Part shown: positions 9,644 to 59,753 of the stretch, piece by piece
Layout: every line of letters starts with the position of its first letter
Position numbering within the stretch: position 1 is the stretch's first letter
Origin: Candidatus Cloacimonadota bacterium
GTDB taxonomy: Bacteria > Muiribacteriota > UBA6191
Length of the DNA: 64,000 nt
Assembly: GCA_019454875.1 (NCBI GenBank)
Contig: JACFNL010000006.1
Location: 5,349-69,348 of the forward strand
Direction: 5' to 3'
Translations under genes and position numbers: made by a program
The notes under the pieces: model-generated
Told to the model about the DNA's origin: nothing
The model's database searches: none
The model's input: only the letters and a program-made list of their open reading frames with translations

Positions 9644-9650
9644 CTGATTT

Positions 9651-9687
9651 AAACCGGTGGATTTTCTTAGAAAGTACCACCGGTTTT
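9651..9687 (+). terminator. Intrinsic terminator/stabilising hairpin after acpP
   Basis: AAACCGGTGG...CCACCGGTTT inverted repeat with short T tract. Confidence 0.7.
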
Positions 9688-9712
9688 CGCTATGTTTCAG
9701 AGGGAGAATCGC

Positions 9713-11885: not shown

Positions 11886-11896
11886 GCAATCAGAAT

Positions 11897-14675: not shown

Positions 14676-14737
14676 AAATACCTCCTGGCTCAGCATATAT
14701 CGACACAATCCTTAAAAAATATGCTATTTTTGAACTT

Positions 14738-15073
14738 ATGACTATTTTTGAAAAAATTATCAATAAAGAGATTCCCGCTGATATTGTTTATGAAAATGAA
14801 TGGGTGCTTGGCTTTCGTGACATTGCCCCGCAAGCACCGGTGCATGTTCTGTTTATACCCAAAAAACCGGTGGAAAATTTTCTTGAGGCATCTTTGGAAG
14901 AGGGTCTTATGGACAGGCTTTTTTCCGCAATTTATGAATTTGTGGAACAGGCAGGTTTAAATCGGGAACAGATTCGCCTGGTAACAAATTGTGGTGCATT
15001 GGCAGGGCAGTCTGTATTTCATTTCCATGTTCATCTTTTGTCAGGAAGAAACTTCTCGTGGCCACCAGGGTAG
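14738..15073 (+). CDS. Histidine triad (HIT/Hint) nucleotide-binding protein
   Basis: TIFEKII, DIAPQAPVH, QSVFHFHVHLL. Confidence 0.95.
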   Translation: MTIFEKIINKEIPADIVYENEWVLGFRDIAPQAPVHVLFIPKKPVENFLEASLEEGLMDRLFSAIYEFVEQAGLNREQIRLVTNCGALAGQSVFHFHVHLLSGRNFSWPPG

Positions 15074-26220: not shown

Positions 26221-26273
26221 AACGGTAAGAGTCTGCCTTTTTTTTGGCGACTTGTAACCTTGGAGTGAAGCGG

Positions 26274-29705: not shown

Positions 29706-30235
29706 AGTTCAAACCGGCTGCTTTGAGTATACAGGGCAGCCAGTTCAAACAGAAGATTATCACCATTTCTGAATTCAGGCCGAACATCTTCACTGACTTC
29801 TTTAGGCAGTGGGAGGCCCACCTTCCATACTTCCATACGGATAAGATAGGTGACACGGCTTGTAGTACTTAGATCTTCGACTTTGGTGATTCTGGAAAAT
29901 GTACGAAAATGCGCATTGTTGTATTCAAGATCCATACTTGTTGCATTAGGAGATAAAAGGGAGCGATCGCGGATTCCGGGAGCAACCAGGGTTATTTCTG
30001 GTGGATAGGCTGAAAAATTGGCAGGTGAGATCCTGTCGATAAACTGATGCTGATTCAAAAACAAATCCATCTGATTACGACCGACTGTAATGGCACTCAC
30101 CTGGTCCTGCTGCATTAAAAGCAGTTCTACAAGATTGGCCAATGACCCAATCAGGGGAAATACCCCAACGGCGATCACAGTGATGGTGATCAGCAGTTCA
30201 ATCAGGGTTACACCTTTATTGTATAGAGGTTTCAT
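29702..30235 (-). CDS. Prepilin-type N-terminal cleavage/methylation protein (PilV/pseudopilin-like)
   Basis: NKG|VTLIELLI class III signal. Confidence 0.85.
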   Translation of the reverse strand: MKPLYNKGVTLIELLITITVIAVGVFPLIGSLANLVELLLMQQDQVSAITVGRNQMDLFLNQHQFIDRISPANFSAYPPEITLVAPGIRDRSLLSPNATSMDLEYNNAHFRTFSRITKVEDLSTTSRVTYLIRMEVWKVGLPLPKEVSEDVRPEFRNGDNLLFELAALYTQSSRFEL

Positions 30236-41165: not shown

Positions 41166-41558
41166 CTACTCCGCAAAAAGCTGGACGGCCTGTTTGTGAA
41201 AGTAGTTCAGAACCAGATTTCGCAGTTCCATCAGGTCGCAGTCTGATTTGGCGAGAAAGTCTTCGATGCCAAGGTTGTTAAAGGTGCGGATGTAATTTTC
41301 CTGAACATGGGCCGTGAGAACAAAGATGCCTACCTTGTCATTTAAGGTTCGGATTTTTTTCAAAAATTCTACGCCATTCATTTCGGGCATGTGAATGTCG
41401 GTAAAAATCAGATCGTAAGAGTCTGACTGGAATCGTTCCAGGGCTAAAACACCATTTTCGGCCACATGGACAATGACATTGGGCAGGGCTTGAAGTGCAT
41501 CACAAAGCAGTTGTGCAAACAGTCTTTCATCTTCAACAATCAAGATTTTTTTTTCCAT
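41166..41558 (-). CDS. Single-domain (CheY-like) response regulator
   Basis: ILIVEDE, TDIHMPEMNG, LTAH, FLAK. Confidence 0.92.
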   Translation of the reverse strand: MEKKILIVEDERLFAQLLCDALQALPNVIVHVAENGVLALERFQSDSYDLIFTDIHMPEMNGVEFLKKIRTLNDKVGIFVLTAHVQENYIRTFNNLGIEDFLAKSDCDLMELRNLVLNYFHKQAVQLFAE

Positions 41559-44610: not shown

Positions 44611-47163
44611 TTATGCCCCGTGGCAGCGTTTGTATTTTTTGCCACTACCACAGGGGCAGGGGTCATTGCGTCCAATATCAAGAGCCTGTGCTGGCCTGGC
44701 CTTGGCTTCCTTATTCTGTTGTAACTCCTCAATCTCTTCTTCAGTTGAGGAGTAGATCAGTTCTTTGGGGGCTTCGGGTACAGGAATCTCCTGTTTAGGA
44801 TTAAAATCGAGCTTGAACAAAAGAGAGATGGTTTCTTCGCGGATACGGCGAATCATCTCGTTAAACAGATCGGTTGCCTCAAGTTTATATTCCACCAGAG
44901 GATCTTTCTGTCCGTAACCTCTTAAACCGATTCCTTCTTTTAAGGCATCCATAGTATTCAGGTGCTCACGCCATGTCATATCCACAGTCTGCAAAAGAAT
45001 GGCTTTTTCAATATGTCGAAGAAAGCCAGACCCTAGAACCTGCTCCCGATTGGAGTACTGCTGTTTCAGAGAATCTATAATCTGTTTTCTAAGGGCCCCA
45101 GGTTCCATACCACGGGCTCCTTCTGGCAGAGGATGATTGAACTTTTCACGAATCTGCACCTCAAGTTCATCAAAATCCCAGCTTTCCTTGGGCACATCTT
45201 TATGTACGGTATCCTGAAGAATTCTTTCTACAGTGCGCTCAAGCATGTGCTGGATATCTTCGGAAACATCTTCTACCTTAAGAGCCTTTTGTCTTTGCTG
45301 ATAGACAATTTTTCTATGGTCATTCATGACATTGTCATATTTAAGAATATGTTTTCTGGCTTCAAAATGCATGGTTTCAACGCGTTTCTGTGCTCTTTCA
45401 ATCGCCTTGGTCACCATATTGGAGTCAATCGTCTCTCCGTATTCCCATCCCATAAAATTCATGAGGTTGGTCATTCTTTCGCCCCCGAAGATGCGCATTA
45501 AATCATCCTCGAGTGAGAGATAAAACACAGAAGTACCAATGTCTCCCTGCCTTCCTGCACGACCTCTGAGCTGATTATCGATCCGGCGGGACTCGTGGCG
45601 TTCTGAGCCGATAATGTATAGGCCACCTAAATCGGTAACACCTTCTCCTAGTTTAATGTCAGTACCCCGTCCTGCCATATTGGTGGCAATGGTTATTGCT
45701 CCTTTCTGTCCAGCTAAGGAAACAATCTCCGCTTCCCTTTCATGGTGTTTGGCATTCAGAACCTGATGAGGGATGTTTTCCCGGCTCAACATCATGGACA
45801 GCATTTCTGACCGTTCAATGGAGATGGTTCCAATCAGCAGGGGTTGACCAGTCAGATTCAGTTCCTTGGCCTTGGCAAGGATCGCTTCGTATTTTTCTTT
45901 CTGGGATTTGTAGATCCTGTCAGGCAGATCAATTCTGGTTACCTTGCGGTTGGTGGGAATGGCAATCACATCCAGATCATAAATCTCGGCAAATTCGTTG
46001 GCCTCAGTCAGGGCCGTTCCTGTCATACCGGCCAATCGCTGGTAAAGCCGGAAAAAATTCTGAAAGGTAATTGAGGCCAGGGTTATGGATTCGGTTGCCA
46101 CTGGCACACCTTCTTTGGCCTCAATTGCACCGTGAAGTCCATCACTGTAGCGGCGGCCAGGCATCAGACGGCCCGTAAACTCATCAATAATAATCACTTC
46201 TCCATTCTGAACAACATATTGCTGATCCCGGTGAAACAGGTTTTCAGCCTTTAAAGAAGCTTCCAGATGGTGAAGAAGTTTGAGATTTTCAGGGGCATAA
46301 AGGTTTTCAACCCCAATAATTTTTTCCGCCGCTGCAATGCCCTCATCACTCAGATACACACTATGGGCTTTTTCATCGACGGTAAAGTCCTTATCCTTTT
46401 TCAAAAGTTTGACCCAGCGGGACATTTTCAGGTATAGGTCTGTGGATTTTTCGGCTGGCCCGGAGATGATCAGAGGGGTTCTGGCCTCATCTACCAAGAC
46501 AGAATCGACCTCGTCAATTACACAGTAATTTAATCTTTGCACAATATCTTCAGGGTGGGTGGCCATGTTGTCCCTGAGATAATCAAAGCCAAACTCGTTG
46601 TTGGTACCGTAGGTTATGTCACAAAGATAGGCTTCCCTTTTTTCCTGCGAGTTCTGTCCATGGTGAATCAGCCCTACGCTAAGTCCTAAAAATCTATGTA
46701 CCTGTCCCATCCATTCCGAGTCACGGCGGGCCAGATATTCATTGACAGTGACCACATGAACCCCACGGCCCATAAGACCATGAAGATAAGTCGGAAGGGT
46801 AGATACCAGGGTTTTACCTTCCCCGGTTTTCATCTCCGCAATATTGCCACGAAACAGAACAATTCCCCCGATAATCTGGCAGTTGTAATGCCTCTCCCCC
46901 AAAACCCTTCTGGCAGTTTCCCGAACTGTGGCAAAAGCCTCGGGTAAAACCATTTCCAGGGCTTCAAAATACTCAACCCCATGATCCAGCTGTTCCTGTA
47001 CCATGGCCCGCAATTTTGGAGTCTGAGCTTTCAGGCCCTCGTCATCCAGAGATTTTAATCTGGATTCAAAGGTATCTACCTCGTCAGCTATCAGCTGCAT
47101 TTTGCGAATCTGTCTTTCATTGTAGCGGGCTGGAAGAAAAGTTTTAAGTGCTTTTAAAATCAT
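44611..47163 (-). CDS. secA: Preprotein translocase ATPase SecA
   Basis: [50 protein letters not shown]. Confidence 0.98.
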
Positions 47164-47218
47164 GGAATCTGTTCCTTGTTCTGGGAGAGGGATTTTCAGC
47201 TATCCGTTGAAATCCGTG

Positions 47219-47266
47219 AAAACAAAAGGCGAGGAACCCGCGCACTTCTACGCTAGCACCTCGCCT
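47219..47266 (-). terminator. Intrinsic terminator after hpf
   Basis: AGGCGAGG...CCTCGCCT stem followed by TTTGTTTT on the minus strand. Confidence 0.65.
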
Positions 47267-47279
47267 AAGATTCAGTTGT

Positions 47280-47858
47280 TCACTTGTTTGGTTCAATCAG
47301 GCCAATGTTACCATCGTTTCTACGATATACAACATTCACATCCCCGGTAGAAGCATTGTTAAACACAATAAACTCCTGTTGCAGATACTGAAGCTGTTCG
47401 GCTGCTTCATCAGTAAACATGGGTTTGGTGAAAAATGTGTTGGAGCGAATGATTTTAGGACTGACATTCAGCTCTTCTTCCACATGCACTTCTTCAAACT
47501 CAGGAGCAACCACTAAGTGCTTGAAGTGGAAGTCACGATGTTTGTGCTTACGGTTGGGTTTGGTTTTTAACTTGTCCTTGTATTTGGAAGTCTGTTTCTG
47601 AAGTTTGTCCACAATCAAATCAATGGCTGCGTACATGTCAGGATGGGAACTGGATGCTCTAAAATTGATTCCCGTAGCCCAGATTGTAACTTCAGCTGTG
47701 TGAAGAATTCCCTGGCTTTTGGTTTTATCTACAGATAAGGTCACCTCAATTTCCTGGAGCTGTTCTACATAGGAATGAATGGAATCCATTTTCTTTTCCA
47801 CAAACTCTTTAATAGAAGGTGTCAATTCGATGTTTCTGCCTGTAATGATGACTTTCAT
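47280..47858 (-). CDS. hpf: Long ribosome hibernation-promoting factor
   Basis: ITGRNIELT, DMYAAID, C-terminal KPM..EA..QL...F.VF.N...NVVYRR.DGNIGLIEP. Confidence 0.95.
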   Translation of the reverse strand: MKVIITGRNIELTPSIKEFVEKKMDSIHSYVEQLQEIEVTLSVDKTKSQGILHTAEVTIWATGINFRASSSHPDMYAAIDLIVDKLQKQTSKYKDKLKTKPNRKHKHRDFHFKHLVVAPEFEEVHVEEELNVSPKIIRSNTFFTKPMFTDEAAEQLQYLQQEFIVFNNASTGDVNVVYRRNDGNIGLIEPNK

Positions 47859-47952
47859 AAGTACCTCCTGTGGCGACCACTAGTCTTTTGTGTACATTTT
47901 ACTCTTGAAGATAAGGGCTTTGCAAAGCATAAAATATGTATATACTGCAGGA

Positions 47953-48519
47953 ATGTTTTTTGTTGAAGATGTTATGCTAAGTGATGCAATTCGGTACACC
48001 CGTTTTGGCTGCCGTCTTATGACATGCAAAGGTAAATGCTGTGAGGAGGGGGATAGTGGTGCTCCTCTTACCGAACTTGAAGCCCAGACAATTGAAGCAA
48101 TCCTGCCAATTGTGGCTTCAGAGCTAGAGCCGTCTGGATTGCAGGTGGCGAGCAGGCGGGCAGTGGTTCGTGAACAAGGCAGGCCACATACCCCGTTAGT
48201 TGGGGAAGCTGGGCCATGCGCCTATCTGATTCCTGGTGAAGGCTCGGTTAAAATCTGTGCCTTTGAAAAACTTTTTAAAGAGGGAAAAATCGGATTTTTG
48301 AAACCCGTTTCCTGCCATTTGTTTCCACTGATTTTTAAAGAAACCATGTTTTATCGCTCATTATCTTTGCAGACCAGGGAATCCTGCATGTCTTCTTATG
48401 GAGCAGCCGGGCCTCATATTGTAGAATTTTTGAAAGAACCCCTGATTCGTCAGTTTGGGGAAGATTGGGTAAAAAAATTGTTTCTTGAGCTTAACTTAAC
48501 CTTTGAATCAGACTCCTGA
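47953..48519 (+). CDS. DUF3109 family Cys-rich protein
   Basis: CKGKCCEEGDSGAPL, CAY, CAFE, KPVSCHLFP; start reassigned to ATG 47953. Confidence 0.85.
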   Translation: MFFVEDVMLSDAIRYTRFGCRLMTCKGKCCEEGDSGAPLTELEAQTIEAILPIVASELEPSGLQVASRRAVVREQGRPHTPLVGEAGPCAYLIPGEGSVKICAFEKLFKEGKIGFLKPVSCHLFPLIFKETMFYRSLSLQTRESCMSSYGAAGPHIVEFLKEPLIRQFGEDWVKKLFLELNLTFESDS

Positions 48520-50280
48520 ACCCAGACTTTCCAGTGTGACAAGTGTGTCCTGAAACTCGTTGGGCTTGGTTGTTACTTCAGGATCCAGATTTAAACCCTG
48601 TTTGACCAGTCGGTTAAAATCCTGCCAGACCTGTTGTCCTGGGGTGGCGAGCTTCCGGTCAGAAACTTCGGCTAGAAAGTCGAGCTGGTATACCTTGTTA
48701 TTTTGTAATACAAACACGGATCTTTTGGCGATATAACCCCGGTTCTGCTGACCTGAAGGATGGGGGAATACATAATCTACCAAAAACACCTCATCGCCCC
48801 AGTATTTGTCGGCTACACTGAAATAATCATTCTGGTACCTGGTCGAATAATAGGCTGCAAGGTTACTGCGTAACTGTTCCAAAGTACCGGCTTCCGAGGC
48901 ATTCAGAACAGAAAAGGTTCCTCGAAGGTTACTTTCAGGATCGGGATAGAAGCGGTATTTGGTTGAAGAACGGGAATCAGGATTTTTTTCCCACTTCCAT
49001 TCACTAAGCCCTGATTTTACAACAGGAGCAGGAATCTGATAGAACTCATAGAACCTAAATCCGGCTCCACCAAGAAGCCCAAGGATGGAGATAGCTGCCA
49101 AGTTGCGCACAAATCGAATCATCAGGGTAAAAATTCCAGGACTGTTATTCTGTTGTGTCTGATTGTGGGTATTATTGTTCATTGGTCCATTCTGGCGACG
49201 ATCCCGCCTTTGAATCAGTTCATCGACCTGTGTTTTGCCTGAGTCGGATACCTTAGGTTCTTCCAGGCGGGACAGTTCCTGGGAAATACTTTCTGTTTTC
49301 TGAATCAACTCTTCAAGATCCGCTGAATATGTGTCAGCCACCAGCTCTTTGACGGGCTGTGGTTTTGCTGGCTCACTTTCCAGATTGGCCTTGCGCATCA
49401 TTTCCGCCAAATCGGATTGAGACAGGATTGCATCCGGTTCGGCATCAAGCAGGGGAGCCATCTCAAGTCCAACCGAGACTGGAGCCTGTTTAACCGGAGC
49501 CTGTTTAGCCGGGGGTTCGGGAATTTTGATTTCAGATTCTTTGGTATCAAAAAGATCATCAGTAGATACCTGAATTTCCTTTTGAGTTTTGGCAATCAGG
49601 GCTTGAATATCGTCATGAGAAAGTACAGCGTCACTGTCACTATCCATGGTAGTAGCATTGGCTGCCTCAACTAAAGCAGCAATCTGATCTGGTGATAGGG
49701 GGGCATCGTCGTCAGGGTCCATGGAACTATGCAGAATTGATGGGACTTTAGGTGCGGGAGCAAAGACCTGTGGCTCAGGTTCAAGAGCAGGTGCTGGAGC
49801 TGGTGCTGGGCTTTGGGCTTCACGGATCAATGCCTCTATGTCATCGGAAGACATGATTTCATCTTTACTAGGGCTAGAGGTTTCTACCTTGGCTACAGCT
49901 GGTTCAGGTTCAGGTTCTGGTTCAGGCTGGGGCTCAGGTTGTGGTTCAGGTTCAGGCTTAGCTGCCTGAGTGGTGGATTTAATCAATGCGTCAATATCGC
50001 CTTGACTTAACATTCCATCGTCTGGTTCCATTTTAGAGCTCTGAGGCTCAGGCTTGGGTTCCTCTTGGGCTGGGGAGTCTGTAGCAGAGGCACTAGGAGT
50101 ATCGGCAGTGTCTTTGGTCTCATTCTCTTCGGCTTCTTTAGCCTTGTCTGGATCCTCGGGAGGATTCAAAATATTTTCGTTGGTTGCATTGAGGGTATTT
50201 TCGGGGAATAGGCTGGCTACGGCGTATTTTTCCGCCTCTGTAAATAGATCCTGAATTTCCCGATCGGTGAACTGTGACAT
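48508..50280 (-). CDS. Single-pass membrane protein with disordered N-terminal arm bearing repeated FliM-N-like motifs and an extracytoplasmic C-terminal domain
   Basis: LSQGDIDALI, MSSDDIEALI, LSPDQIAALV, LSHDDIQALI, LSQSDLAEMM; TM near aa 393-410. Confidence 0.75.
   Translation of the reverse strand: MSQFTDREIQDLFTEAEKYAVASLFPENTLNATNENILNPPEDPDKAKEAEENETKDTADTPSASATDSPAQEEPKPEPQSSKMEPDDGMLSQGDIDALIKSTTQAAKPEPEPQPEPQPEPEPEPEPAVAKVETSSPSKDEIMSSDDIEALIREAQSPAPAPAPALEPEPQVFAPAPKVPSILHSSMDPDDDAPLSPDQIAALVEAANATTMDSDSDAVLSHDDIQALIAKTQKEIQVSTDDLFDTKESEIKIPEPPAKQAPVKQAPVSVGLEMAPLLDAEPDAILSQSDLAEMMRKANLESEPAKPQPVKELVADTYSADLEELIQKTESISQELSRLEEPKVSDSGKTQVDELIQRRDRRQNGPMNNNTHNQTQQNNSPGIFTLMIRFVRNLAAISILGLLGGAGFRFYEFYQIPAPVVKSGLSEWKWEKNPDSRSSTKYRFYPDPESNLRGTFSVLNASEAGTLEQLRSNLAAYYSTRYQNDYFSVADKYWGDEVFLVDYVFPHPSGQQNRGYIAKRSVFVLQNNKVYQLDFLAEVSDRKLATPGQQVWQDFNRLVKQGLNLDPEVTTKPNEFQDTLVTLESLGSGV
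49900..49956 (-). repeat. Coding (PE/PQ)n low-complexity repeat
   Basis: CCTGAA-type hexamers encoding PEPEPQPEPQPEPEPEPEP. Confidence 0.8.
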
Positions 50281-50301
50281 AAGTATTATGGTGTCAGTAG
50301 C

Positions 50302-50328
50302 TTATCGGCAGCATATTCTAGTTGCTAG
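50302..50328 (-). promoter_or_regulatory. Putative sigma28-like promoter (perfect -10, weak -35)
   Basis: GCCGATAA at 50309-50302, 21 nt upstream of ATG 50280. Confidence 0.45.
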
Positions 50329-51944
50329 AGGTCCTGTAGAAAATCTTTAATTTGAATTTCAGGAATTTTCAGCAGTTTCTCTTTTGAAACAAAAAGATCA
50401 GAATCATTTAAGTCCTGATTTAAAAATCCCTGATCAAACAGGGATGGCATGGACTGTGATTTACTGCCAGCACTCATTCTGTATTCGGTTGGATTGTAAG
50501 CCACAACTTTAGTATTGAGCCCCTGTCCAAACCGCATTTGAGTGCCAGATTGAAGTTTTGTTGTTTCTATTTTGGTATCTACCGTCAGTTCACCCTGGAC
50601 TACACCGGCTGTGGAATAGTCAGGATGGTGGCGGGCTAGATGGTAACTTCCGATTTTTCCTTCAATCCTGCCATGACTGGTCTGACAGGCAAATGCCTTC
50701 TCTTTGTCCTTAACTGTGATTTTGATACTTCCTGTATCCAGATGAAATTCATTGTGGGCGATAACCCTTAAGTCGGAGGCTGCTTCGAGAACGATGTCGG
50801 CATGTGATGTTTTAAGATAGGCATCTGAACTTGAGGTTCTAAGAAATTCTCCAGCACGAACAGGACTGTTTTGGCCATTTAACTCAAAAAAACCAACAGG
50901 TGGATTAAACTGATCCATGTTTTGCAAAAGACTCATTGTGTTTGTAGTGCTTTTGACTTCGGATACGGTTTCACTTCGGACAGGGTTTATAGTTTTGTAT
51001 ATGGAGCCACAAAAGAAAACTACAATAACTGCCAAAGCTGGTTTCACCAGGGCTGTGGCCTGCTTCTCCTCAACCTGATTTTTCCAGGGCTCAGTACTGA
51101 ATCCATCGGCTTCAGAGTTTTCCAGTTCCTGTTTTTCCTGAAGCTGCCGGATCTCATTTTGTCTGCGGATTGCTTCAATCATCGAGGAAGGTTCTGAGCT
51201 TTTTTCTTTAGGTGGCTCCCATTGGGGGTACAAGGAATGTACATGGGTGTAAATACTTTTTTCTTCAAACCGGTCACGAAAGTCGATTCTTAAACCCTGG
51301 AGAAGTCGATGCATTCTCTGGTGAAAGGGTACAGTATTCAAAATCTGCTGCTTTGAGTTTAGCTGGTCTACAAACTGGGTCAACTCTTCTGCGGCAGTGA
51401 GTGATGGGTCCTTGGCCGGGTGTCCCATTAACTGATCCAGGATTGTATACAGGTGGGCTTCCAGTACGGGTTCAGAAATTCCCAACAAGCGAGCTGTTCT
51501 TTTGGAACCGAGTCCCTCCAGGACACACAAATCAAGCAGAAACTTTCTGGGGCTGGAAAGCTGGGTTCTTCTAAGAATGGAAACGGTATCCCGATCGGGC
51601 AGGGAGTCCTTATCAAAAAACTTGTCCGACAGGGGTTGTAAATGAGTCTCTTCGTAGGCACATTCACGAACCCGGCCCAAAAACGCCTTGGCCGGTTCCG
51701 GTTTGTCCCTCAAAACCAGTTTGAGCGCACCGGTTAGCAGTAGCATATTCAGTGGCTCACTCTTGGATTGCCGGATTTTTGAGTCCCGTAATCGGCCCAA
51801 AATTTCGGCACTCCAGTTCCATGCCAATGACCTATCCTCCGTAAAATAGGTAAAAAAATGGCATAGGCAGGGATTCCCCTCGGTCCAGAGGCTTAAATAA
51901 TCTTCTGCATCAGAAACCTTTGCCATGACGGAATCGTTCTCCAT
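50325..51944 (-). CDS. Degenerate ECF sigma-like domain fused to TM and FecR-like periplasmic domain
   Basis: sigma2-like and sigma4-like (LEGLGSKRTARLLGISE) N-terminus; TM; FecR-like LDTGSI...FACQTSHG...VVQGELTV. Confidence 0.6.
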   Translation of the reverse strand: MENDSVMAKVSDAEDYLSLWTEGNPCLCHFFTYFTEDRSLAWNWSAEILGRLRDSKIRQSKSEPLNMLLLTGALKLVLRDKPEPAKAFLGRVRECAYEETHLQPLSDKFFDKDSLPDRDTVSILRRTQLSSPRKFLLDLCVLEGLGSKRTARLLGISEPVLEAHLYTILDQLMGHPAKDPSLTAAEELTQFVDQLNSKQQILNTVPFHQRMHRLLQGLRIDFRDRFEEKSIYTHVHSLYPQWEPPKEKSSEPSSMIEAIRRQNEIRQLQEKQELENSEADGFSTEPWKNQVEEKQATALVKPALAVIVVFFCGSIYKTINPVRSETVSEVKSTTNTMSLLQNMDQFNPPVGFFELNGQNSPVRAGEFLRTSSSDAYLKTSHADIVLEAASDLRVIAHNEFHLDTGSIKITVKDKEKAFACQTSHGRIEGKIGSYHLARHHPDYSTAGVVQGELTVDTKIETTKLQSGTQMRFGQGLNTKVVAYNPTEYRMSAGSKSQSMPSLFDQGFLNQDLNDSDLFVSKEKLLKIPEIQIKDFLQDL

Positions 51945-52803
51945 TAAACAGGGGATTCACTACAAAAAAACTGGTGGAAATGCTTCGTCCTTCCGGGCCA
52001 GAGCCTTGCCTTTCCCCTTGAAATACCATTTTAGTATGATGATAGACCTTGGTCAGTCTGAGATTAAACTTTGAAGGTTCTTCCTTGTCTCTAAAGTAGG
52101 AGAATTCAAAACCTGGTTCAATACTGAAGTGCTCGATTCGGCCTTCTGCCCCGTGAAGCTGCCCAAATCGATGCGTTTCCTCTCCCTCGCCCGGGCCAGT
52201 CATTCTGGAGACAAAATTCAGTTTTTCCTTGCCGCTTAAATCACTCAGATAGTGTCTATACCAGACTTTTTCACCCTTGACACCAATGTAGTACTCGCGA
52301 ACCTTGGCAGAAATAGGTTCTTCGATGTCCCGGCTGACTACGGCAAATGAATTGAGCATAAATTCAGGATGGTCATTAAGCACCACTTTTTTGTCAAAAA
52401 AGTGGTCGTATTTATCCTCATATTCATAATACATCTGGCCGTTGGCTCCAAATTTTTCCCGAGGCAGCCTTTGGATGGGCAAAACCTCAATTGTGTCAGA
52501 GACAGCGTTGACATCATCATAAACCACACAGGGGAAAAAGCGGGGCTGGATTGGAAATGGTTTTTTGTGCTGGTGTAAATCAACAGGTGCATCGCTTTTG
52601 GTGAATCCTTGAGCATCGTACAAATCCTGTCGCAAAACCATGATGAAATTTTGCATGTCCTTGATTGTGCTTAAGGTTTCTTCACCTTTAAAGGAGTTTC
52701 GTAATGATTCAATAAAATAGGTGTAGATTCCTATCAGAAGAACGGCGGCCACCCCCACTGCAAACACAGCTTCAATCAAGGTAAAACCGTGCCGTGTTTT
52801 CAT
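51910..52803 (-). CDS. Prepilin-type protein (PilW/GspJ-like)
   Basis: RHG|FTLIEAVF; ATGA coupling. Confidence 0.85.
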   Translation of the reverse strand: MKTRHGFTLIEAVFAVGVAAVLLIGIYTYFIESLRNSFKGEETLSTIKDMQNFIMVLRQDLYDAQGFTKSDAPVDLHQHKKPFPIQPRFFPCVVYDDVNAVSDTIEVLPIQRLPREKFGANGQMYYEYEDKYDHFFDKKVVLNDHPEFMLNSFAVVSRDIEEPISAKVREYYIGVKGEKVWYRHYLSDLSGKEKLNFVSRMTGPGEGEETHRFGQLHGAEGRIEHFSIEPGFEFSYFRDKEEPSKFNLRLTKVYHHTKMVFQGERQGSGPEGRSISTSFFVVNPLFNGERFRHGKGF

Positions 52804-53321
52804 TGTAAATATACCTCGTCCCTGGTCATTACGGTTTTTAACTCTAAAGACCGGTTGTATTCGCTGGCTCCAGGGGTTATCCATTCCACACGAACGGCGA
52901 GAACCTTGGCATCGGGCATAGGACGATGGTTTTCACTGGAACCGATGTTGGCAGGATAAATTTTTATCATGCGCCGAAATCGGTCTGGCATTGGAGAAAG
53001 TACAAGTTTACTTAAGGAGCGAATATCGGGATTTTTGAAATCTTCCCATAAGTAGGGGCGGGGCATGGCTGAGATATCAAGCCAGGGGTTTTTTTCGTTT
53101 TCATCCGAAATATTATTGATTCCATCCATACCCAATGACATCTTGATCGTAGTGATACTGTCAACTACCTCACGAGCAATGATCATGGCCTGAATTTCAT
53201 CCAGGCTGGCCTCGGTCTGATGTATAGACTGGCGGAACATAAAAAACATGGGTATGGCCAGAAACAGAAGAAGCATTGAGGCAATGATGATTTCCACCAG
53301 TGAAAATGCTTTTTTACTCAT
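52800..53321 (-). CDS. Prepilin-type protein (PilV/GspI-like)
   Basis: KKA|FSLVEIII; C-terminal FRRMIKI...VRVEW. Confidence 0.85.
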   Translation of the reverse strand: MSKKAFSLVEIIIASMLLLFLAIPMFFMFRQSIHQTEASLDEIQAMIIAREVVDSITTIKMSLGMDGINNISDENEKNPWLDISAMPRPYLWEDFKNPDIRSLSKLVLSPMPDRFRRMIKIYPANIGSSENHRPMPDAKVLAVRVEWITPGASEYNRSLELKTVMTRDEVYLQ

Positions 53322-55668
53322 GCTCAATTCTTTTTTTTCCTTGATTGTGATCATCCAATGCCATTCTATACATTTTCCAGCTGTCTGGAGCAAGTGGATT
53401 TAACCTAGGGTTATAGGTTAATGTAGTGGATGCCTGAAACATGGACAGATCCAGACGGGACACAGCCAGGGATCCCAAAATATGTACAATCTGTTCCGGG
53501 TTGGACTTGCGGATAGTGCCTGAAGAGGTTAGCTGGGCCTCGTAGAGAGTGGGGACTCCGGGGGGAGTGTTACCAGGATTCAAATGAATCTCGGAACATT
53601 CAAATCCTGCGTAAAATCCCTGGGATTCCACGGGAGCGAGATTACACATTCCGGCGACTATGATGCTGCTGTCTCCAGATAACACCACCGGAAGATCAAG
53701 GTTTAAATTGCCCCACAACCCAATTGTGCGCCCCTGGGTATTGAGATAAAACATCCCGCTGCCTCGCTTCAAAATTCCGGCATCCTCAAGTTTTTCCTGT
53801 TTGTCATAAAAAAAGCTGGCTCGTTTCAAAGAGGCGTGGGCCAGGTCATGATAGTCGGGTATTCCCTTCAGATATGCTCCTGTAGGTGTCATACTCTTGG
53901 GGAGCTTCTGAACCCAGGTTTCCTCATCATCCTTGCCAGGAGATGGTCTTAAACTGGGGGGGAAGCTGTAATCAAGAAAACTTTCGTGGGCATGGGGCGG
54001 AAATACCTTATGGGTATAATGAGGGAAATCGATTAAGTGATTTAAATGAACCCGGATTGTTTGGGCCATTATGGATTCATATTCCTGGTACTGAGGTGCA
54101 AGAAGCTCCCAGGAAAAATCGGGCTGGGCCAGCAGGTGGACTGGTTCTTCACAATCTTCCACAAAGTTCATATTGGTCCACTGAAGTGGCAGGGGCTGAT
54201 AAAAGGGAGGATTTTTATTCACAAATTCAAACTCGGTCAGATTGCGAATTATGGCCGAACTTTCAAAATTGTGAACAGATTCAGGCAGGCAGCGGGCTCT
54301 TGAGCGTTCATCGGCATCACTTAGATCCCGGTCTATTCTTAAGGAGCTGAGTTTTGCTATTTCCAGATAGGCTTCTCCTACTGTGTAGGTTCTTGAAGGA
54401 TAGTCTACAGAACCAAACACCTTCAAAAGAGATGATTCCGCAGAATATTGGGGAATATAGTAGGCAGGATTGGCAGGCCCGGTAGTCTCATAAAAGCCTT
54501 CGTAAAGTTCTTCCACCCATACGGATCCGGCATTGTCTGCAAGGGGTGGGGTTTCAGGATCCTCAAAAAAATAGGTAAACATCACTGGCTCGGTAAATCG
54601 TGGAGGGGGATCGAGTCTAATGTAATTTGGCAGACGAATCCTGTTGTCTCCAGTCACTTTGGCCCTGGTAGTAAAATAGTTGCGGTTAAGAATCATGAAC
54701 TGCTGTCCGGCCGCTGCCATTCCCGGAGTCATCTTGAGCACACTGGACTGGGAGTTTCCAAGGTAAAGCCATCCTCTTTGATCAATAGAGGATTTGCTTA
54801 ACTGAAGTTTGTTTGAATCCCTTAAAGAATCAAGGCCTTCCATTGTGTCAGGAGCGGGACCATAAATCTGGAGATCGGTTTTGATTTTTTCATCCTTTAA
54901 AGGACTGTGATACAGAAACATGGGGTAGTTGTACTGATATTTGAGGTTTCCACCCTGGACAATAGGGACTCCGTTAATATCTGTGTACAGCCTCTGGTAA
55001 TTACTAAAATTGGAGTCATTGTGCCAGAGAGTAAATCTGGACAAAACAGGCTGACCCAAGGAGTAGGATACCAGGGTCTTTGTCCTGACGGCCCCGCCTA
55101 TCAGACCCTTAAAATCCACGGATGCGCCAAAGTTCAGGGCACACTGAATCAAGATGCTGTCTTGAAATTCAGACTCTTTGTCCAATCTGGGATGACATGA
55201 GTAGGCCAGTTTTAGCTGGTAGTCCTCTGCTCCGATCTGCTTCAAGAACAAATCCATTGCCTTAACAGTCTGTCCCCGCTTCTTTAGCCATTCCACATTC
55301 TGTTCATGATTAATTTCTCCGTGCCCACCCTTGGGAAGCAATGAGAAGTTTCTGAGGAAGAATCCAAAATAGCCGGCATCTGTGTTGAGGCGATCTGAAT
55401 TGATTGCACTCTCAAGGATTCTGTGATCCTGGGCACCCTCCACGCTGTCGCGAAAACCCAGTATAAACAGTTCCACCAACCCTTCTGCCGCTGTTTTTGC
55501 ACTTTCTGCATAAAACATTCTGTGTGCATCACGATTTTGCTGTAAAGAACGGGAGTGTAGTGTCAAAAAAAGTATTCCAACGACACTAAGGATGCCAAGT
55601 ACTATAAAAAGTACAAAGCCCCGGTTGTGAGAATATAGTCTTTTGGGAAAAATAATTTGCATATCCAC
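53314..55668 (-). CDS. Large PilX/GspK-like minor pilin or tip adhesin
   Basis: NRG|FVLFIVL (no Glu5), AKTAAEG; C-terminal GSLAV...LTYNPRL. Confidence 0.75.
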   Translation of the reverse strand: MDMQIIFPKRLYSHNRGFVLFIVLGILSVVGILFLTLHSRSLQQNRDAHRMFYAESAKTAAEGLVELFILGFRDSVEGAQDHRILESAINSDRLNTDAGYFGFFLRNFSLLPKGGHGEINHEQNVEWLKKRGQTVKAMDLFLKQIGAEDYQLKLAYSCHPRLDKESEFQDSILIQCALNFGASVDFKGLIGGAVRTKTLVSYSLGQPVLSRFTLWHNDSNFSNYQRLYTDINGVPIVQGGNLKYQYNYPMFLYHSPLKDEKIKTDLQIYGPAPDTMEGLDSLRDSNKLQLSKSSIDQRGWLYLGNSQSSVLKMTPGMAAAGQQFMILNRNYFTTRAKVTGDNRIRLPNYIRLDPPPRFTEPVMFTYFFEDPETPPLADNAGSVWVEELYEGFYETTGPANPAYYIPQYSAESSLLKVFGSVDYPSRTYTVGEAYLEIAKLSSLRIDRDLSDADERSRARCLPESVHNFESSAIIRNLTEFEFVNKNPPFYQPLPLQWTNMNFVEDCEEPVHLLAQPDFSWELLAPQYQEYESIMAQTIRVHLNHLIDFPHYTHKVFPPHAHESFLDYSFPPSLRPSPGKDDEETWVQKLPKSMTPTGAYLKGIPDYHDLAHASLKRASFFYDKQEKLEDAGILKRGSGMFYLNTQGRTIGLWGNLNLDLPVVLSGDSSIIVAGMCNLAPVESQGFYAGFECSEIHLNPGNTPPGVPTLYEAQLTSSGTIRKSNPEQIVHILGSLAVSRLDLSMFQASTTLTYNPRLNPLAPDSWKMYRMALDDHNQGKKRIEHE

Positions 55669-55726
55669 ATATAGTTTGCCCGATCTCTGGCGAAAAATAC
55701 AGGGTTACTGATATATACTTGCAGGT

Positions 55727-56425
55727 ATGATCAAACAGATTAATGCGCTTAGAGAACATGAGCTGGCAAGGCAGGAAGCCAGAATCAGGGTAGAAAAGGC
55801 CAGGCAAAGGATTCAAGAAGCCCAGTCCAAGGTGAACGGGCTGTCGCAAGGCATCGAGGATTGCCAAAAAAAAATTCAATCCAAAAATCTGGAACAGAAG
55901 CGGCTGGAGCTGGATTTAAAGGCTTTGGACCAGGAGTTAAAAAGACTGGAGCAGCAAAAACTTGGCGCAGGCAGTGAAAAACTTTTGGAGGCACTGAATT
56001 TAAAAGGCGAGAAGCTTAAAGAATCATCAAGTAGCCTTGAGGACACGATTCTTGAAATTTTGCAGTCCGTGGAAGATCTTCAGACCAGGATGCAGGAAAT
56101 GAGCCTGAGTCTGAAAAAAGAAGAGGCCTTGTTTGAGAGTGGGATCGTGGGCTGGAACGAGGAGTTGCTTGAGGCCCAAAAGACCCTGCATGAAATTACG
56201 CAGGAAGACGAACAGGCTCTGGATGGTCTGAGTGCAGATATGGTTCGTTTGCATACTGCTGCCCACAAGGCTTTAAAGAGAGAATGTGTTATTTTTGCAG
56301 TAACAAGTGAATGTTGTCCTAATTGCGGAATTCATCTGGCACAGAATTCCTATATAGCCATGAGATATCATAATCAGGTTCATCCCTGTCCTTCCTGCCA
56401 GGGAATTTTGTACTACCCAGGCTGA
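55727..56425 (+). CDS. Coiled-coil + C4 zinc-ribbon protein (CT398/FlgZ/DUF164-like)
   Basis: Long coiled coil then CPNC...CPSCQGILY. Confidence 0.85.
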   Translation: MIKQINALREHELARQEARIRVEKARQRIQEAQSKVNGLSQGIEDCQKKIQSKNLEQKRLELDLKALDQELKRLEQQKLGAGSEKLLEALNLKGEKLKESSSSLEDTILEILQSVEDLQTRMQEMSLSLKKEEALFESGIVGWNEELLEAQKTLHEITQEDEQALDGLSADMVRLHTAAHKALKRECVIFAVTSECCPNCGIHLAQNSYIAMRYHNQVHPCPSCQGILYYPG

Positions 56426-56428
56426 TAA

Positions 56429-57163
56429 ATGATGTTAAAACTGTTCCTGGTTCTGACTTTAATTAGTGTTTTTGAGGCCTTGCCCGTTCAGGATGATGCT
56501 TTGCTGTTTAGCCCTGAATCCCGTCAGGCCATGGAACAAATGGCCCAGGAGCTTGAGTTAAGCACGGGGATTCGTTTTTTTGTCCTGGTTGAAGAAACAT
56601 TTCATCTTGAGAATTTTGATTCCAGCTCCCGTTCGGCCTTTGCCCGGTTTATTGAGCCTGTGGCCAATACTCGAGGGGCCATGATTTTTTTGCAGCTCGA
56701 AAAGGGCTCACGCAGGGGAAGGGTCAGTTTTTCCCTGGGGCTAGGGCTTCAGGGTGCCATGGAAAGAGAAGCAGTCCGTGAGATTTTAAAGGATATGATC
56801 CAGGCTTTGAGCCGTGATCAGAACTACCAGAAAAAGCTTGTCGAAGGGGTTTCACGGTTTATCAAAAACCTCAAAGACTATGCCCAAAAAAGCCCGGCTG
56901 TGAGTCCAGATCCTGAAAAACAAAGCACTCTTGAAGTAGAACCGGCGGTTTCATCCAGTAAATTTTTCTGGATTGCTTCTGTTCTTTTGATCTCGTTTAT
57001 TATAAGCTTGGCCTTGTTCGTCTGGTCGCGACGCAAATGTCCGCGTTGTGGGTCCAGACTGCATGTAAACATCCGCCCCCTGTCGCATGGGGAATCTCGG
57101 TATAAACGGATTAAAATCATAAAATGTTTCGATTGCAATTACTTCCGGAAATACCTCTTCTAG
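56429..57163 (+). CDS. TPM-domain membrane protein with C-terminal Zn ribbon
   Basis: VQDDALLFS...LELSTGIRFFV TPM start, TM, CPRC...CFDC. Confidence 0.75.
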   Translation: MMLKLFLVLTLISVFEALPVQDDALLFSPESRQAMEQMAQELELSTGIRFFVLVEETFHLENFDSSSRSAFARFIEPVANTRGAMIFLQLEKGSRRGRVSFSLGLGLQGAMEREAVREILKDMIQALSRDQNYQKKLVEGVSRFIKNLKDYAQKSPAVSPDPEKQSTLEVEPAVSSSKFFWIASVLLISFIISLALFVWSRRKCPRCGSRLHVNIRPLSHGESRYKRIKIIKCFDCNYFRKYLF

Positions 57164-57179
57164 GCTAGAAGGAGCCAGC

Positions 57180-59753
57180 ATGTCTGCAAAAAAGAAAAAT
57201 AAGCCTACAGAAATTGAAGATGATGAACTGGAGGATTTGGAAGATGAGATAGAAAGTCTGGACTACACGCCCAGAGAGCTAGAACCATCACAAATCTCGG
57301 ATCGGGATGAGAAGGAAAGGGCCAATCGGCCCGCTGTTTTTGATATTCCTGTATTACCATTGCGGGAGATTGTTGTTTTTCCGTACATGGTGATTCCATT
57401 GTTTGTGGGAAGAAATCTGTCCTTGGCCGCCATTGAAAAGGCAATGGAGACCAATCGCGAAATTCTTCTGGTTTCACAAAAGCAGGCCAAAACAGATCAT
57501 CCTTCCCGCGAAGACCTTCATGATGTGGGTACAGTTGCTGAGATTATGCAGCTTTTAAAGCTGCCTGATGGAATCGTCAAGATTCTGGTCGAGGGCACTG
57601 CCCGGGCCCGTGTCAGAAAATATCGCGACAACGACAAGTTTTTTGAGGCCGAGATTGAGGAATATGTAGATACCGAAGATAAAAATCTGCGGACTCAGGC
57701 TCTGATGCGAAACGCCATCACCCAGTTTGAAGCCTATATAAAACTCAATAAAAATGTTCCGGTGGAAATTATCAATGTCACCAACAGCGTTGAAAATCCT
57801 GGACGGCTAGCAGACATCATTGTGGCTCACCTCAAATTGAAGGTTGAGGCAAAACAGGAAGTTCTGGAGGCATTTTCTGCTGAAGATCGCCTTTCCATGA
57901 TCTGCGATATCTTAAATAAAGAGATAGAGATTCTAAATATCGAGAAAAAAATCCGTGGCCGTGTGCGCAAGCAGATGGAGCAGGTTCAGAAGGAATATTA
58001 TTTAAGGGAACAGATCAAGGCCATTCAGAAAGAACTTGGTGAAAACGATGAGGCGGCCAATGAGGCCAAGGAGTTCAGAAAACTCATTGATAAAGCCAAA
58101 ATGCCTAAAGATATCAAGGACAAGGTTTTAAAAGAATTGGACAAGTTCGCCAAAATGTCTTATTCCTCAGCTGAGAGTGGAGTGATTCGCAACTACCTTG
58201 AAATTATGGTTGAGCTTCCCTGGTCTAAAAAAACCAAGGATCACCTGGATGCCAAAGTAGCTCAGGAGACCCTGGATAAAGACCACTACGGGCTAGAAAA
58301 GGTCAAAGAGAGAATTATTGAATTTTTGGCAGTATGCCAGCTCAAAAACACGATCAAGGGGCCAATTCTTTGTCTGGTGGGACCACCTGGGGTGGGAAAA
58401 ACATCTCTTGCCCGATCAATTGCCGAGGCTATGGGCCGAAAATTTGCCAGAATTTCTTTAGGCGGCATGCGTGATGAAGCTGAAATTCGTGGGCACAGAC
58501 GCACCTATGTGGGGGCTATGCCAGGGCGATTGATTCAGACTTTAAAGCAGGTAGGGACCAAAAATCCGGTTATTCTTCTGGATGAGATCGATAAAACCGG
58601 CTCCGATTTTAAAGGCGATCCTTCCTCGGCATTACTTGAGGTTTTGGATCCGGAACAGAATGTAACCTTTCGTGACCATTATATTGGCGTGCCTTTTGAT
58701 TTGTCTCAGGTTCTGTTTCTCACAACTGCCAACCATCCTTATTCCATCCCTGGTCCTCTGATGGATCGTATGGAAGTGATATCCCTATCCGGTTATACGG
58801 AGGAGGAAAAGGTTCAGATTGCCAAAAAGTATCTGGTCCCCAAACAAATCGAAGAGAATGGTTTGAAAGAGGGGCAGTTAAGCATTTCCGAGGATGCCCT
58901 GGTTGAAATCATTCGTTGTTACACTCGTGAAGCCGGAGTTAGGGATCTGGAGCGCAAGGTCGGTTCCATTGCCCGTAAGGTGGCTAAGGCCATGGTCATG
59001 GAAAAGGATAAAAAGACCAGAAAGGTCACGGCTAAAAATGTAGTGGATTATCTGGGAGTTAGAAAACTGCTTCCAGATATGCAGGGAATTGAGGATCAGG
59101 TCGGTGTGGTTACTGGTCTGGCTGTGACTTCTCTTGGTGGTAACATTTTGCCAATTGAAGTTGAGATTATGGAGGGGGCAGGAAAAATTCTTCTGACGGG
59201 AAATCTAGGAGATGTCATGAAAGAATCCTGTCAGGCAGCAATCACCTATGTTCGTCGGCATAGAGAGAAGTTTTTTATTGACCCGGAGTTTTACAAAAAG
59301 CTCGATATCCATATTCATGCCCCAGAAGCCGCTATTCCCAAAGATGGTCCTTCTGCCGGAATCACAATTGCTACGGCCTTAGTTTCTGCCCTGACAAATG
59401 TGCGGGTGCGTAAAGATGTGGCAATGACGGGCGAAATTTCTCTCAAAGGCAAGGTAATGCCCATTGGTGGGGTGCGAGATAAATCACTGGCAGCATACAG
59501 GGTGGGTATAAAAGACATTATCCTGTGTGAAGAAAATGAGAAGGATCTTGAGGAAATCCCCAAGGAAATCAAGGAAAATATCCGCTTTCATATCGTAAAA
59601 ACCTTTGATGAAGTTCTGAAGGTGGCTCTTGTTGCCAAGGATTATCAGGATTTGTTATCCGGAAAGACCAAGCCAGCTATAGTTGCCCCAGAGTCCAAAT
59701 CTAAAGGAAGAGGACGCAGAAAATCGGTTCAGATTCAGGCTACGGAGGATTGA
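57180..59753 (+). CDS. lon: ATP-dependent protease La
   Basis: PVLPLR..VVFP, GPPGVGKTS, DEIDK, PKDGPSAG. Confidence 0.98.
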   Translation: MSAKKKNKPTEIEDDELEDLEDEIESLDYTPRELEPSQISDRDEKERANRPAVFDIPVLPLREIVVFPYMVIPLFVGRNLSLAAIEKAMETNREILLVSQKQAKTDHPSREDLHDVGTVAEIMQLLKLPDGIVKILVEGTARARVRKYRDNDKFFEAEIEEYVDTEDKNLRTQALMRNAITQFEAYIKLNKNVPVEIINVTNSVENPGRLADIIVAHLKLKVEAKQEVLEAFSAEDRLSMICDILNKEIEILNIEKKIRGRVRKQMEQVQKEYYLREQIKAIQKELGENDEAANEAKEFRKLIDKAKMPKDIKDKVLKELDKFAKMSYSSAESGVIRNYLEIMVELPWSKKTKDHLDAKVAQETLDKDHYGLEKVKERIIEFLAVCQLKNTIKGPILCLVGPPGVGKTSLARSIAEAMGRKFARISLGGMRDEAEIRGHRRTYVGAMPGRLIQTLKQVGTKNPVILLDEIDKTGSDFKGDPSSALLEVLDPEQNVTFRDHYIGVPFDLSQVLFLTTANHPYSIPGPLMDRMEVISLSGYTEEEKVQIAKKYLVPKQIEENGLKEGQLSISEDALVEIIRCYTREAGVRDLERKVGSIARKVAKAMVMEKDKKTRKVTAKNVVDYLGVRKLLPDMQGIEDQVGVVTGLAVTSLGGNILPIEVEIMEGAGKILLTGNLGDVMKESCQAAITYVRRHREKFFIDPEFYKKLDIHIHAPEAAIPKDGPSAGITIATALVSALTNVRVRKDVAMTGEISLKGKVMPIGGVRDKSLAAYRVGIKDIILCEENEKDLEEIPKEIKENIRFHIVKTFDEVLKVALVAKDYQDLLSGKTKPAIVAPESKSKGRGRRKSVQIQATED

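Follow-up and report, generated by a model that had tools for sequence, protein, structure and literature searches.

The window, a stretch of 64,000 nucleotides of contig JACFNL010000006.1 from a Candidatus Cloacimonadota bacterium, contains at positions 48508-55668 five co-directional minus-strand open reading frames (ORFs), which we label A, B, C, D and E in the order of their transcription. The functional core of this locus is A-B-C-D. A, B and C are minor-(pseudo)pilin-like by their sequences, and D is a hybrid of a homologue of extracytoplasmic function (ECF) sigma factors, one transmembrane (TM) helix and a FecR-type anti-sigma domain. E, appended to this core in the window's own family, is a bitopic membrane protein whose cytoplasmic arm carries motifs resembling the EIDAL peptide of the flagellar proteins FliM and FliY. 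Tentatively, and with somewhat less than even confidence in the explanation as a whole, we propose that A-B-C-D is a module that senses the state of a type IV filament and that E serves in this family as a tether for phosphorylated CheY (CheY-P) and/or FlhG.

An earlier note on this DNA, made from the sequence alone, had given the overlaps of the first four genes and the gap before the fifth, and the ORF coordinates agree: A and B overlap by 8 nt, B and C by 4 nt and C and D by 35 nt, and 44 nt separate D from E. We compared the locus of the window's own genome (G000) with those of its family (f1, including the same-genus relative G001) and of sister families of the same class (f2, including G010, G012, G014 and G015; f3, G011; f4, G013; f5, G017). 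Eight f1 loci were fetched. Five have the full order A-B-C-D-E (G002, G004, G005, G006 and G007); the other three end at contig edges and are collinear as far as they extend. The module proteins of f1 are 23-40% identical to those of the window, except in G001 (71-76% for C, D and E), and for the Lon and SecA of the flanks the identity is 70-76% (95% for SecA of G001). The f1 flanks are collinear as well, with CT398-like, TPM and Lon genes on one side and DUF3109, HPF and SecA genes on the other.

The order A-B-C-D recurs in six genomes of the sister families: G010, G012, G014 and G015 of f2, G013 of f4 and G011 of f3. There the proteins share 21-28% identity with those of the window, the GC content is 47-73% and the flanks differ; E, CT398-like, TPM and Lon genes are found at none of these six loci. 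Since the order is kept over four families of one class, at GC contents from 32 to 73%, while the flanks change, A-B-C-D is a real functional unit. The earlier note had named unconserved gene order and independent distributions as what would speak against a common system; instead, A-B-C-D-E is conserved in f1 and A-B-C-D in the six sister genomes. The five-gene unit that it had proposed stands in part, as A-D travel together, whereas E is confined to f1 and differs from them in distribution.

A 13-sequence profile detects full-length D in the window's genome, in 8 of 9 f1 relatives, in 4/5 f2 genomes and in the one f4 genome; in f3 the match is split, in f5 (G017) it covers the FecR part only, and in G016, a genome 74% complete, the profile has no match. 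The profile of the E C-terminal domain finds the window's genome and 8 of 9 f1 relatives, and none of the 77 other genomes of the phylum. FliM is present in all ten f1 genomes and, in the phylum's other classes, in 60 of 69 genomes, but in none of the eight genomes of the class's other families, which are 70-100% complete. Within the class, E and FliM are thus both found only in f1.

Two side observations concern the module's surroundings. In G007 (L020, G007:C21, ~9500-16800) the module is partly duplicated, with the order A-B-C-A'-C'-D-E. In all five sister loci that reach upstream (L038-L042, L091 set), a CHASE2-GGDEF diguanylate cyclase gene lies divergent from A, and in G012 a CHASE2-adenylate/guanylate cyclase gene converges on D. 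These genes hint that A-D has a partner acting through a second messenger in the families without E. The best CHASE2-GGDEF homologue of the window's genome (32% identity) lies elsewhere, on contig C163, beside enolase.

Table 1 Genes, domains and motifs of the locus (positions in the window; residue numbers in the feature column).
Feature	Position	Strand	Description
A	53314-55668	-	784 aa, GTG start; the Atlas record begins at residue 3
B	52800-53321	-	173 aa, from the ATG giving MSKKAFSLVE
C	51910-52803	-	297 aa, start MKTRHGFTLIE
D	50325-51944	-	539 aa, sigma-like/TM/FecR hybrid
D sigma-like domain, ~12-175	51420-51911	-	ECF sigma-2 and sigma-4-like, degenerate; hhalign, Foldseek
D TM helix, ~299-322	50979-51050	-	hydrophobic stretch VKPALAVIVVFFCGSIY; supported by the helix of the AF2 model; F310 invariant
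D FecR-type periplasmic domain, ~350-485	50490-50897	-	all-beta; Foldseek, Pfam, profile search
E	48508-50280	-	590 aa, bitopic, EIDAL-like motifs and periplasmic domain
E motif 1, 91-100	49981-50010	-	LSQGDIDALI; near-canonical FliM/FliY EIDAL; PSSM 21.9 bits
E motif 2, 143-152	49825-49854	-	MSSDDIEALI; PSSM 11.8 bits, fourth-best genome window
E motif 3, 195-204	49669-49698	-	LSPDQIAALV; degenerate; loose expression only; PSSM <5 bits
E motif 4, 220-229	49594-49623	-	LSHDDIQALI; strict expression; PSSM 5.9 bits
E motif 5, 286-295	49396-49425	-	LSQSDLAEMM; degenerate; loose expression only; PSSM <5 bits
E TM helix, ~384-414	49039-49131	-	RRDRR before the helix, cytoplasmic side; AF2 helix 2-32 of the fragment model
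E periplasmic domain, ~429-587	48520-48996	-	PsbP/Mog1/DcrB/EagT6-like alpha-beta sandwich; AF2 pLDDT 79, pTM 0.68
CT398/CdsZ-like gene	55727-56425	+	coiled-coil zinc-ribbon protein; CT398_CC 29.7 bits, cut-off 27 (Pfam)

The AlphaFold2 (AF2) model of D, built from nine orthologues (pLDDT 75), has a helical N-terminal half, a helix at residues 294-319, a beta domain at 351-482 and a low-confidence tail at 492-539; the two halves of the protein lie on opposite sides of the TM helix. Aligned by hhalign with 15 true ECF sigma factors, the N-terminal half reaches a probability of 99.35% (E 5.9e-21, 180 columns). Foldseek matches it to ECF sigma factors at a probability of 0.94-0.98, with SigG1 and BldN at 0.98, and to PhyR (4qic) at 0.89. 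The Pfam sigma scores lie under their cut-offs, Sigma70_r4_2 reaching an E of 0.025 only. For the beta domain, Foldseek returns 4m0h and 4m0n (putative anti-sigma factor) and PupR (6ovk_R), with E 1e-7 and a probability of 1.0. Pfam FecR (PF04773) is found in two of nine f1 orthologues (best E 1.6e-5) and, under the cut-off, in all four sister orthologues (E 6e-5 to 9e-3); FecR_C, the STN-like subdomain (PF16344), has no match in D or its orthologues.

The D profile was also searched against 1.84 billion representative proteins, with 1427 matches at E<=1e-3 and just 34 at E<=1e-10. Its positions 3-175 match proteins of 180-200 aa, and all seven that were tested are Pfam sigma factors; positions 350-490 match anti-sigma factors, with FecR in 5/5 tested and zf-HC2 in 4/5. 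In the Protein Data Bank (PDB) a sequence profile of D has no match. By the hhalign, Foldseek and profile matches, D is an ECF-sigma homologue fused to a FecR-type anti-sigma factor, and the sigma-TM-FecR architecture seen in the earlier note is confirmed.

The sigma-like domain of D is degenerate. Its sigma-4.2-like helix contains 0-3 lysines and arginines in 13 D orthologues, against 3-8 in true ECF sigma factors, the latter counted in those 6 of the 15 aligned proteins that the locating pattern matched. In the hhalign columns, the Trp and IA.N positions of the ECF consensus in region 2.3-2.4 are not kept in D. Judged by its sequence, the N-terminal domain thus lacks the basic DNA-reading residues of the sigma-4.2 helix, and because of this loss a sigma mimic or docking module, as in PhyR, is more likely than a working sigma factor. 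The best conserved parts of D are the sigma-4-like segment and the C-terminal end (mean majority fraction 0.49, against 0.30-0.45 elsewhere). As the sigma-4-like stretch is among them, we read the domain as a constrained pseudo-sigma rather than a fossil. The conserved C-terminal tail reads ..KDFLQKL in f1 and ..VRGFRDSF in the sister families, whose D orthologues also keep Cys..CxxC where zinc-binding anti-sigma domains sit.

No TonB-dependent transducer gene with an STN signalling domain lies beside D in the window, and none was noted in the flanks of eight f1 and six sister loci, which were compared only with the neighbouring proteins of the window and of the sister loci, with no family scan. 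In a separate observation, the D orthologue of G002 (L015, G002:C27, 10130-10259) lacks ATG, GTG and TTG alike in the interval from the preceding stop to where conservation begins, as would be explained by a start codon of an unusual kind, a frameshift or a fault in the assembly.

Among the three genes ahead of D, C has a prepilin motif of the textbook kind, G-FTLIE: Pfam N_methyl matches it with E 2.8e-5 (23.9 bits, over the cut-off of 21.2), and L9 and E11 are invariant across 12 orthologues. NCBIfam adds weak matches to GspJ, PpdB and HpsB. In B, with the motif A-FSLVE, the N_methyl score of 15.9 bits stays under the cut-off, as does NCBIfam ComGE (E 3.7e-4), and E10 is invariant across 10 orthologues. 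Both proteins have the class III prepilin signal, (G/A)-F-x-x-x-E followed by a hydrophobic helix. This signal is not found in A, which has neither Glu5 nor an N_methyl match; its hydrophobic N-terminus, RGFVLFIVLGIL, is of the GspK/PilX type and precedes a large periplasmic body of no known family.

None of ten members of the A family has a Pfam match, PilX_N (PF14341) included, and NCBIfam GspK (NF037980) aligns with residues 16-81 only, at 12.9 bits against a cut-off of 130. In the Atlas feature search, A has a likeness of 0.95 to a PilX_N-bearing cluster, 45% of whose members carry the family, and its nearest clusters belong to Candidatus Rifleibacteriota; we treat both as leads only. Full-length, high-scoring orthologues of A occur only in the window's class, and a paralogous family is present in 79/87 genomes of the phylum, with at most 13 matches in one genome. 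Within the window's own genome A, C, D and E are single-copy, and B has two weak paralogues. The A, B and C profiles match only pilin N-terminal segments in the PDB (E >=0.065), and past that segment NCBIfam and the PDB profiles show no similarity to FimU/PilVWX or GspIJK. Specific PilX, PilV and PilW identities, to which the PilX-like, PilV-like and PilW-like labels of the earlier note point, are not borne out; the broader domain calls of the note, namely pilin-like genes, a sigma-like/TM/FecR fusion and FliM-type motifs, were right.

The five motifs of E were located with regular expressions and scored, independently, with a position-specific scoring matrix (PSSM). Over 1.57 million residues of open frames of the window's genome, the strict expression [LM]S..[DE]I[DEQA]AL[LIV] matches three times in E, once in FliY and nowhere else. 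A loose expression matches 19 ORFs, of which E alone has two or more copies, namely five. By these counts the motifs are far from chance. The PSSM, derived from the N-termini of FliM and FliY in the phylum (30 distinct sequences, none of them from E), was applied to 1.47 million genome windows: FliY ranks first (41.0 bits) and FliM second (33.3 bits), followed by motifs 1 and 2 of E, and all else scores at most 11.7 bits. Both approaches confirm the FliM-type motifs of the initial reading.

In each of the eight E orthologues whose sequence includes the arm, a motif reaches 17.7-27.4 bits and is accompanied by 3-15 weaker copies, and the number of loose matches varies from 4 to 16; in the E fragment of G003, which comprises the N-terminus only, the best motif scores 9.8 bits. 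G000 and G001 share 94% identity in the motif windows and 63% in the linkers. FliM of the f1 family starts with ..LLSQTDIDSLL and FliY with ..MLSQDEIDALL (beginning DDLLSQTDIDSLL and ENMLSQDEIDALL, respectively). Motif 1 of E and its orthologous copies fit the pattern of these proteins, D-x-[LM]-[LM]-S-Q-x-[DE]-I-[DEQ]-[AS]-L-[LI], and an acidic flank and a hydrophobic residue ahead of the Ser are common to the E motifs, FliM and FliY. In E, the motifs are internal; those of the C-ring proteins, which have a CheC-like or SpoA domain, stand at the very N-terminus. Passages of PMC6946799 report that the EIDAL motif binds CheY-P, and passages of bioRxiv 10.1101/2022.04.21.489128 that it is necessary and sufficient for FlhG binding; by analogy of sequence, the motifs of E may bind either protein. 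Among the matches listed (20 of 34 papers) of a full-text literature search on EIDAL, those of relevance deal with C-ring proteins or the archaeal switch, and no title points to such an array on a membrane protein. In G007, E carries a tandem array of ~11 copies of a ~30-residue unit with IMSPDDIANLI.

E begins with a conserved stretch of 45 residues, continues with an acidic, disordered, Pro-rich arm and a TM helix and ends in a periplasmic domain; apart from its first 45 residues and the five motifs, the cytoplasmic part is poorly conserved. In Foldseek the C-terminal domain resembles PsbP (2xb3, E 6e-6), DcrB (6e8a, 9e-4) and SciW/EagT6 (4e-4 to 8e-4). These matches have a probability of 1.0 and E values of 6e-6 to 1e-3, but only 7-15% identity, and the TM-scores are only 0.37-0.59 by target length and 0.34-0.43 by query length. 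Pfam has no match to this domain, and in E no FliM, FliMN_C, LysM or TPR parts. The best feature score in the ESM Atlas, 0.80, is at chance level, leaving a weak PsbP lead, and a search of 5.8 billion proteins returned four homologues only.

Metagenomes of 13 studies, from wastewater, activated sludge and bioreactors, contain sequences near-identical to 48400-55800; seven of the entries are RNA libraries. In four RNA libraries, which belong to three studies, contigs extend over most of the locus; as contigs, possibly with DNA carry-over, they do not allow starts, strands or levels to be read. They bridge A-B (X11), C-D (X7) and D-E (X5 and X7), and no contig bridging B-C is among the matches listed. 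Parts of A-C are uncovered in some runs, which proves nothing. A terminator-like hairpin with a T-run lies at 50416-50445 (-) inside the 3' end of D, ~100 nt before its stop and just upstream of the ends of the E contigs; it may be due to chance, as the scan count is at the level of shuffled sequences.

We propose the following mechanism. A, B and C would make up the complex that primes or tips a type IV filament; before or after assembly, as subunits in the inner membrane, they would expose their globular parts to the periplasm. In this compartment, the FecR-type domain of D would read the state of A-B-C, be it their stock, their assembly or a contact via an STN-bearing secretin, and relay it across the membrane to the sigma-like domain, the presumed cytoplasmic output. 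Release of the N-terminal domain by regulated proteolysis, as in IutY, is possible. In the flagellated family E would have been appended as a fifth gene, its putative PsbP/DcrB-fold domain sharing the periplasmic compartment with A-B-C and the FecR-type domain. As a multivalent tether or sink, it would capture CheY-P and/or FlhG at the filament machine and thereby couple the state of the pilus to flagellar switching or flagellar number. We find distinctly unlikely a bolder variant, in which a pseudopilin tip or STN-secretin replaces the TonB-dependent transducer as the input of an IutY-like protein, and E is a regulated CheY-P/FlhG sponge, so that the filament state sets the flagellum.

Several observations weigh against the proposed mechanism. 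No TonB-dependent transducer lies beside D, which is also devoid of FecR_C/STN, the subdomain in contact with the transducer in systems of the PupR type, and its sigma-like domain may be a fossil without output. The tip role of A-B-C is inferred from their class, since they show no similarity to solved minor pilins beyond the N-terminal segment. As the whole f1 neighbourhood is collinear, including Lon, SecA and HPF, synteny within f1 alone says little on E. This gene is missing from the sister families that keep A-D; its co-occurrence with FliM in the class is one evolutionary event, and the 60 FliM-bearing genomes of other classes have no E. Motif 1 alone stands clearly above the genome background, with motifs 3 and 5 weak, and a hidden Markov model of the same FliM/FliY seeds gives E an E value of just 0.47 (third in the genome), not significant alone. 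Finally, in X5 and X7, which belong to one study, the word depth is 27-58 over E against 0-7 over A-D, and the contigs over E end at 50364-50374, ~85-95 nt upstream of the ATG of E; this weakly suggests that E has a transcript start of its own.

Among the alternatives, a plain assembly cassette is rather unlikely. It would consist of A-B-C as minor pilins and D and E as accessory or chaperone membrane proteins, with the sigma and EIDAL parts reduced to leftovers or generic helices. The loss of basic residues from the sigma-4.2-like helix, the sub-threshold Pfam sigma scores and the membership of A in a large, expanded paralogue family are what one would expect of it, and PsbP/DcrB/EagT6-fold domains are often chaperone-like binders. 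A fossil, however, would not be expected to have its sigma-4-like segment and C-terminal end as the best conserved parts of the protein, and generic helices would not explain motif windows so much better conserved than their linkers, or a motif of at least 17.7 bits in every arm-covering orthologue.

It is also unlikely, in our estimate, that D is a working sigma factor of the IutY type, freed by Prc/RseP-type proteolysis and activating the pilin operon or other genes, next to an E that is an unrelated flagellar placement or hub protein (tethering FlhG or CheY) and came by accident to lie beside it in one family. The architecture of D, the Cys..CxxC of its sister orthologues and the M50 and S41 proteases of the window's genome fit the first half of this account, although these proteases are generic and say nothing about D; its paucity of basic residues in the 4.2 helix and the altered region 2.3-2.4 speak against it. 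As to the second half, the restriction of E to f1, its deeper RNA contigs that end just upstream and the 44-nt gap, as opposed to the overlaps within A-D, can be set against the position of E directly after D in 8/8 f1 loci (contig ends cut G003 and G008), at 23-35% identity, and against the D-E junction bridged in two RNA runs. That the motifs are generic acidic amphipathic repeats of a HubP/FimV-like landmark with other partners, convergent with EIDAL, is quite improbable: their variable number, the derived unit of the G007 array, their internal position, N-terminal in FliM, and the four of five window motifs near or under the genome background would suit such repeats, but motif 1 and its counterparts exceed the background maximum in 8/8 arm-covering orthologues, the acidic and hydrophobic flanking residues are those of FliM/FliY, and E is without the LysM or TPR parts of HubP/FimV.

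Candidate partners for the proposed filament-sensing module and its tether occur elsewhere in the window's genome. By its gene content the organism is flagellated and chemotactic: the genome encodes FliM, FliY, MotAB and FliL, five CheW matches and 40 receiver domains. A CheY candidate (C21, 27455-27898) is one that we take to be similar to the Thermotoga-type CheY. FlhF and MinD-like ATPases are present. On C49 (L075 2-1481), an FlhF-like gene is directly preceded by two tandem MinD/ParA-like ATPase genes, the first cut by the locus start and the second of 309 aa with KGGVGKS; both are possible FlhG paralogues.

On the input side, the contact partners of FecR-type proteins in cell-surface signalling are STN domains, as in the PupR-PupB work behind 6ovk. 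In the window, a secretin of 1153 aa (26244-29705, +) has weak STN (E 7.3e-4, 19.7 bits) and FecR_C-like (E 2.8e-3) matches at ~160-227, and beside it is a prepilin-type gene (29702-30235; N_methyl E 4e-5). The genome has five secretins; that of C213 has a stronger STN match (42.8 bits) and lies ~4.5 kb from an RseP-type M50 protease gene. An STN-bearing secretin is, with these two candidates, a lead for the input of D.

The 3' end of E runs 12 nt into a convergent DUF3109 gene (47890-48519). The start of A is ~60 nt from the divergent CT398-like gene, beyond which are a TPM-domain gene and lon. In the CT398-like protein Zn_ribbon_9 scores 16.4 bits, under the cut-off, yet CPNC...CPSC is present in the sequence; with NCBIfam CdsZ it scores 16.8 bits against a cut-off of 275 and is no equivalog. 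We considered this gene, which the earlier note lists as CT398/FlgZ-like, as a member of the system and rejected it: it lies beside the module in f1 loci only and is absent there from the six sister loci. Since the family occurs in 71/87 phylum genomes, among them genomes of f2 and f3, in which no FliM was found, no weight attaches to its position next to the module in f1. A scan of 47000-57500 for promoters and terminators is uninformative: it returned 18 and 13 candidate sites, respectively, where shuffled sequences led one to expect 14.0 and 12.5. A 130-aa protein consisting of a receiver domain alone is encoded at 41166-41558 (-), beside efp and 7 kb from the module, with no CheY-type context.

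Should the proposed contacts be true, a type IV filament would be connected by a direct molecular route with gene expression and with the flagellum, the kind of link long sought in work on surface sensing. The sigma/FecR hybrid is known from siderophore signalling; here it is translationally coupled to minor-pilin genes throughout the class. The EIDAL peptide is known from the C-ring; here it is multiplied on a membrane protein beside pilin genes. Both settings are undescribed as far as we searched. The proposal is cheap to test, since its key pieces, short peptides and small soluble domains, can be produced without a culture of the organism.

The claim of the earlier note that no equivalent has been described is too strong for D, as IutY of Pseudomonas putida has the same architecture. 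PMC5411451 and PMC8999054 describe this ECF243-type protein as sigma and anti-sigma domains in one polypeptide, activated by Prc and RseP. In both proteins, one TM helix joins an ECF-sigma-type domain in the cytoplasm to a FecR-type domain in the periplasm. IutY, however, works with a TonB-dependent siderophore transducer and contains a proven sigma factor released by Prc and RseP, whereas D is welded to pseudopilin genes, with no transducer noted beside it in our limited comparison of flanks, and has neither the FecR_C/STN subdomain nor the basic sigma-4.2 residues, but a conserved C-terminal tail of its own. With PhyR, an anti-anti-sigma mimic of the general stress response in alphaproteobacteria, D shares a degenerate ECF-sigma fold, which in PhyR is a protein-binding decoy and not a DNA reader. 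PhyR is soluble and receiver-controlled, in contrast to D, which is membrane-anchored and joined to a FecR-type sensor, with no NepR-like partner identified here.

For E, the EIDAL peptide of FliM/FliY fits motif 1 and its orthologous copies; here 4-16 repeats are placed internally on the disordered arm of a bitopic protein that has a PsbP-like periplasmic domain and no CheC-like or SpoA domain. HubP/FimV are, in passages of bioRxiv 10.1101/2022.04.21.489128, bitopic polar landmarks that recruit motility regulators, FlhG among them, through a long cytoplasmic region that is acidic and rich in repeats. E has the opposite topology and a PsbP-like instead of a LysM periplasmic domain, and neither Pfam nor the 5.8-billion-protein search found a sequence relation. 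A related concept is that of minor pilins and PilY1 feeding back on FimS-AlgR, and of the GspI-J-K and minor-pilin priming complexes: a set of minor pilins primes or tips the filament, and an inner-membrane sensor reads its membrane pool (PMC5979040 and PMC7541494). There, the sensor is a histidine kinase encoded elsewhere in the operon region, whereas here a sigma/FecR hybrid is translationally coupled to the pilin genes themselves.

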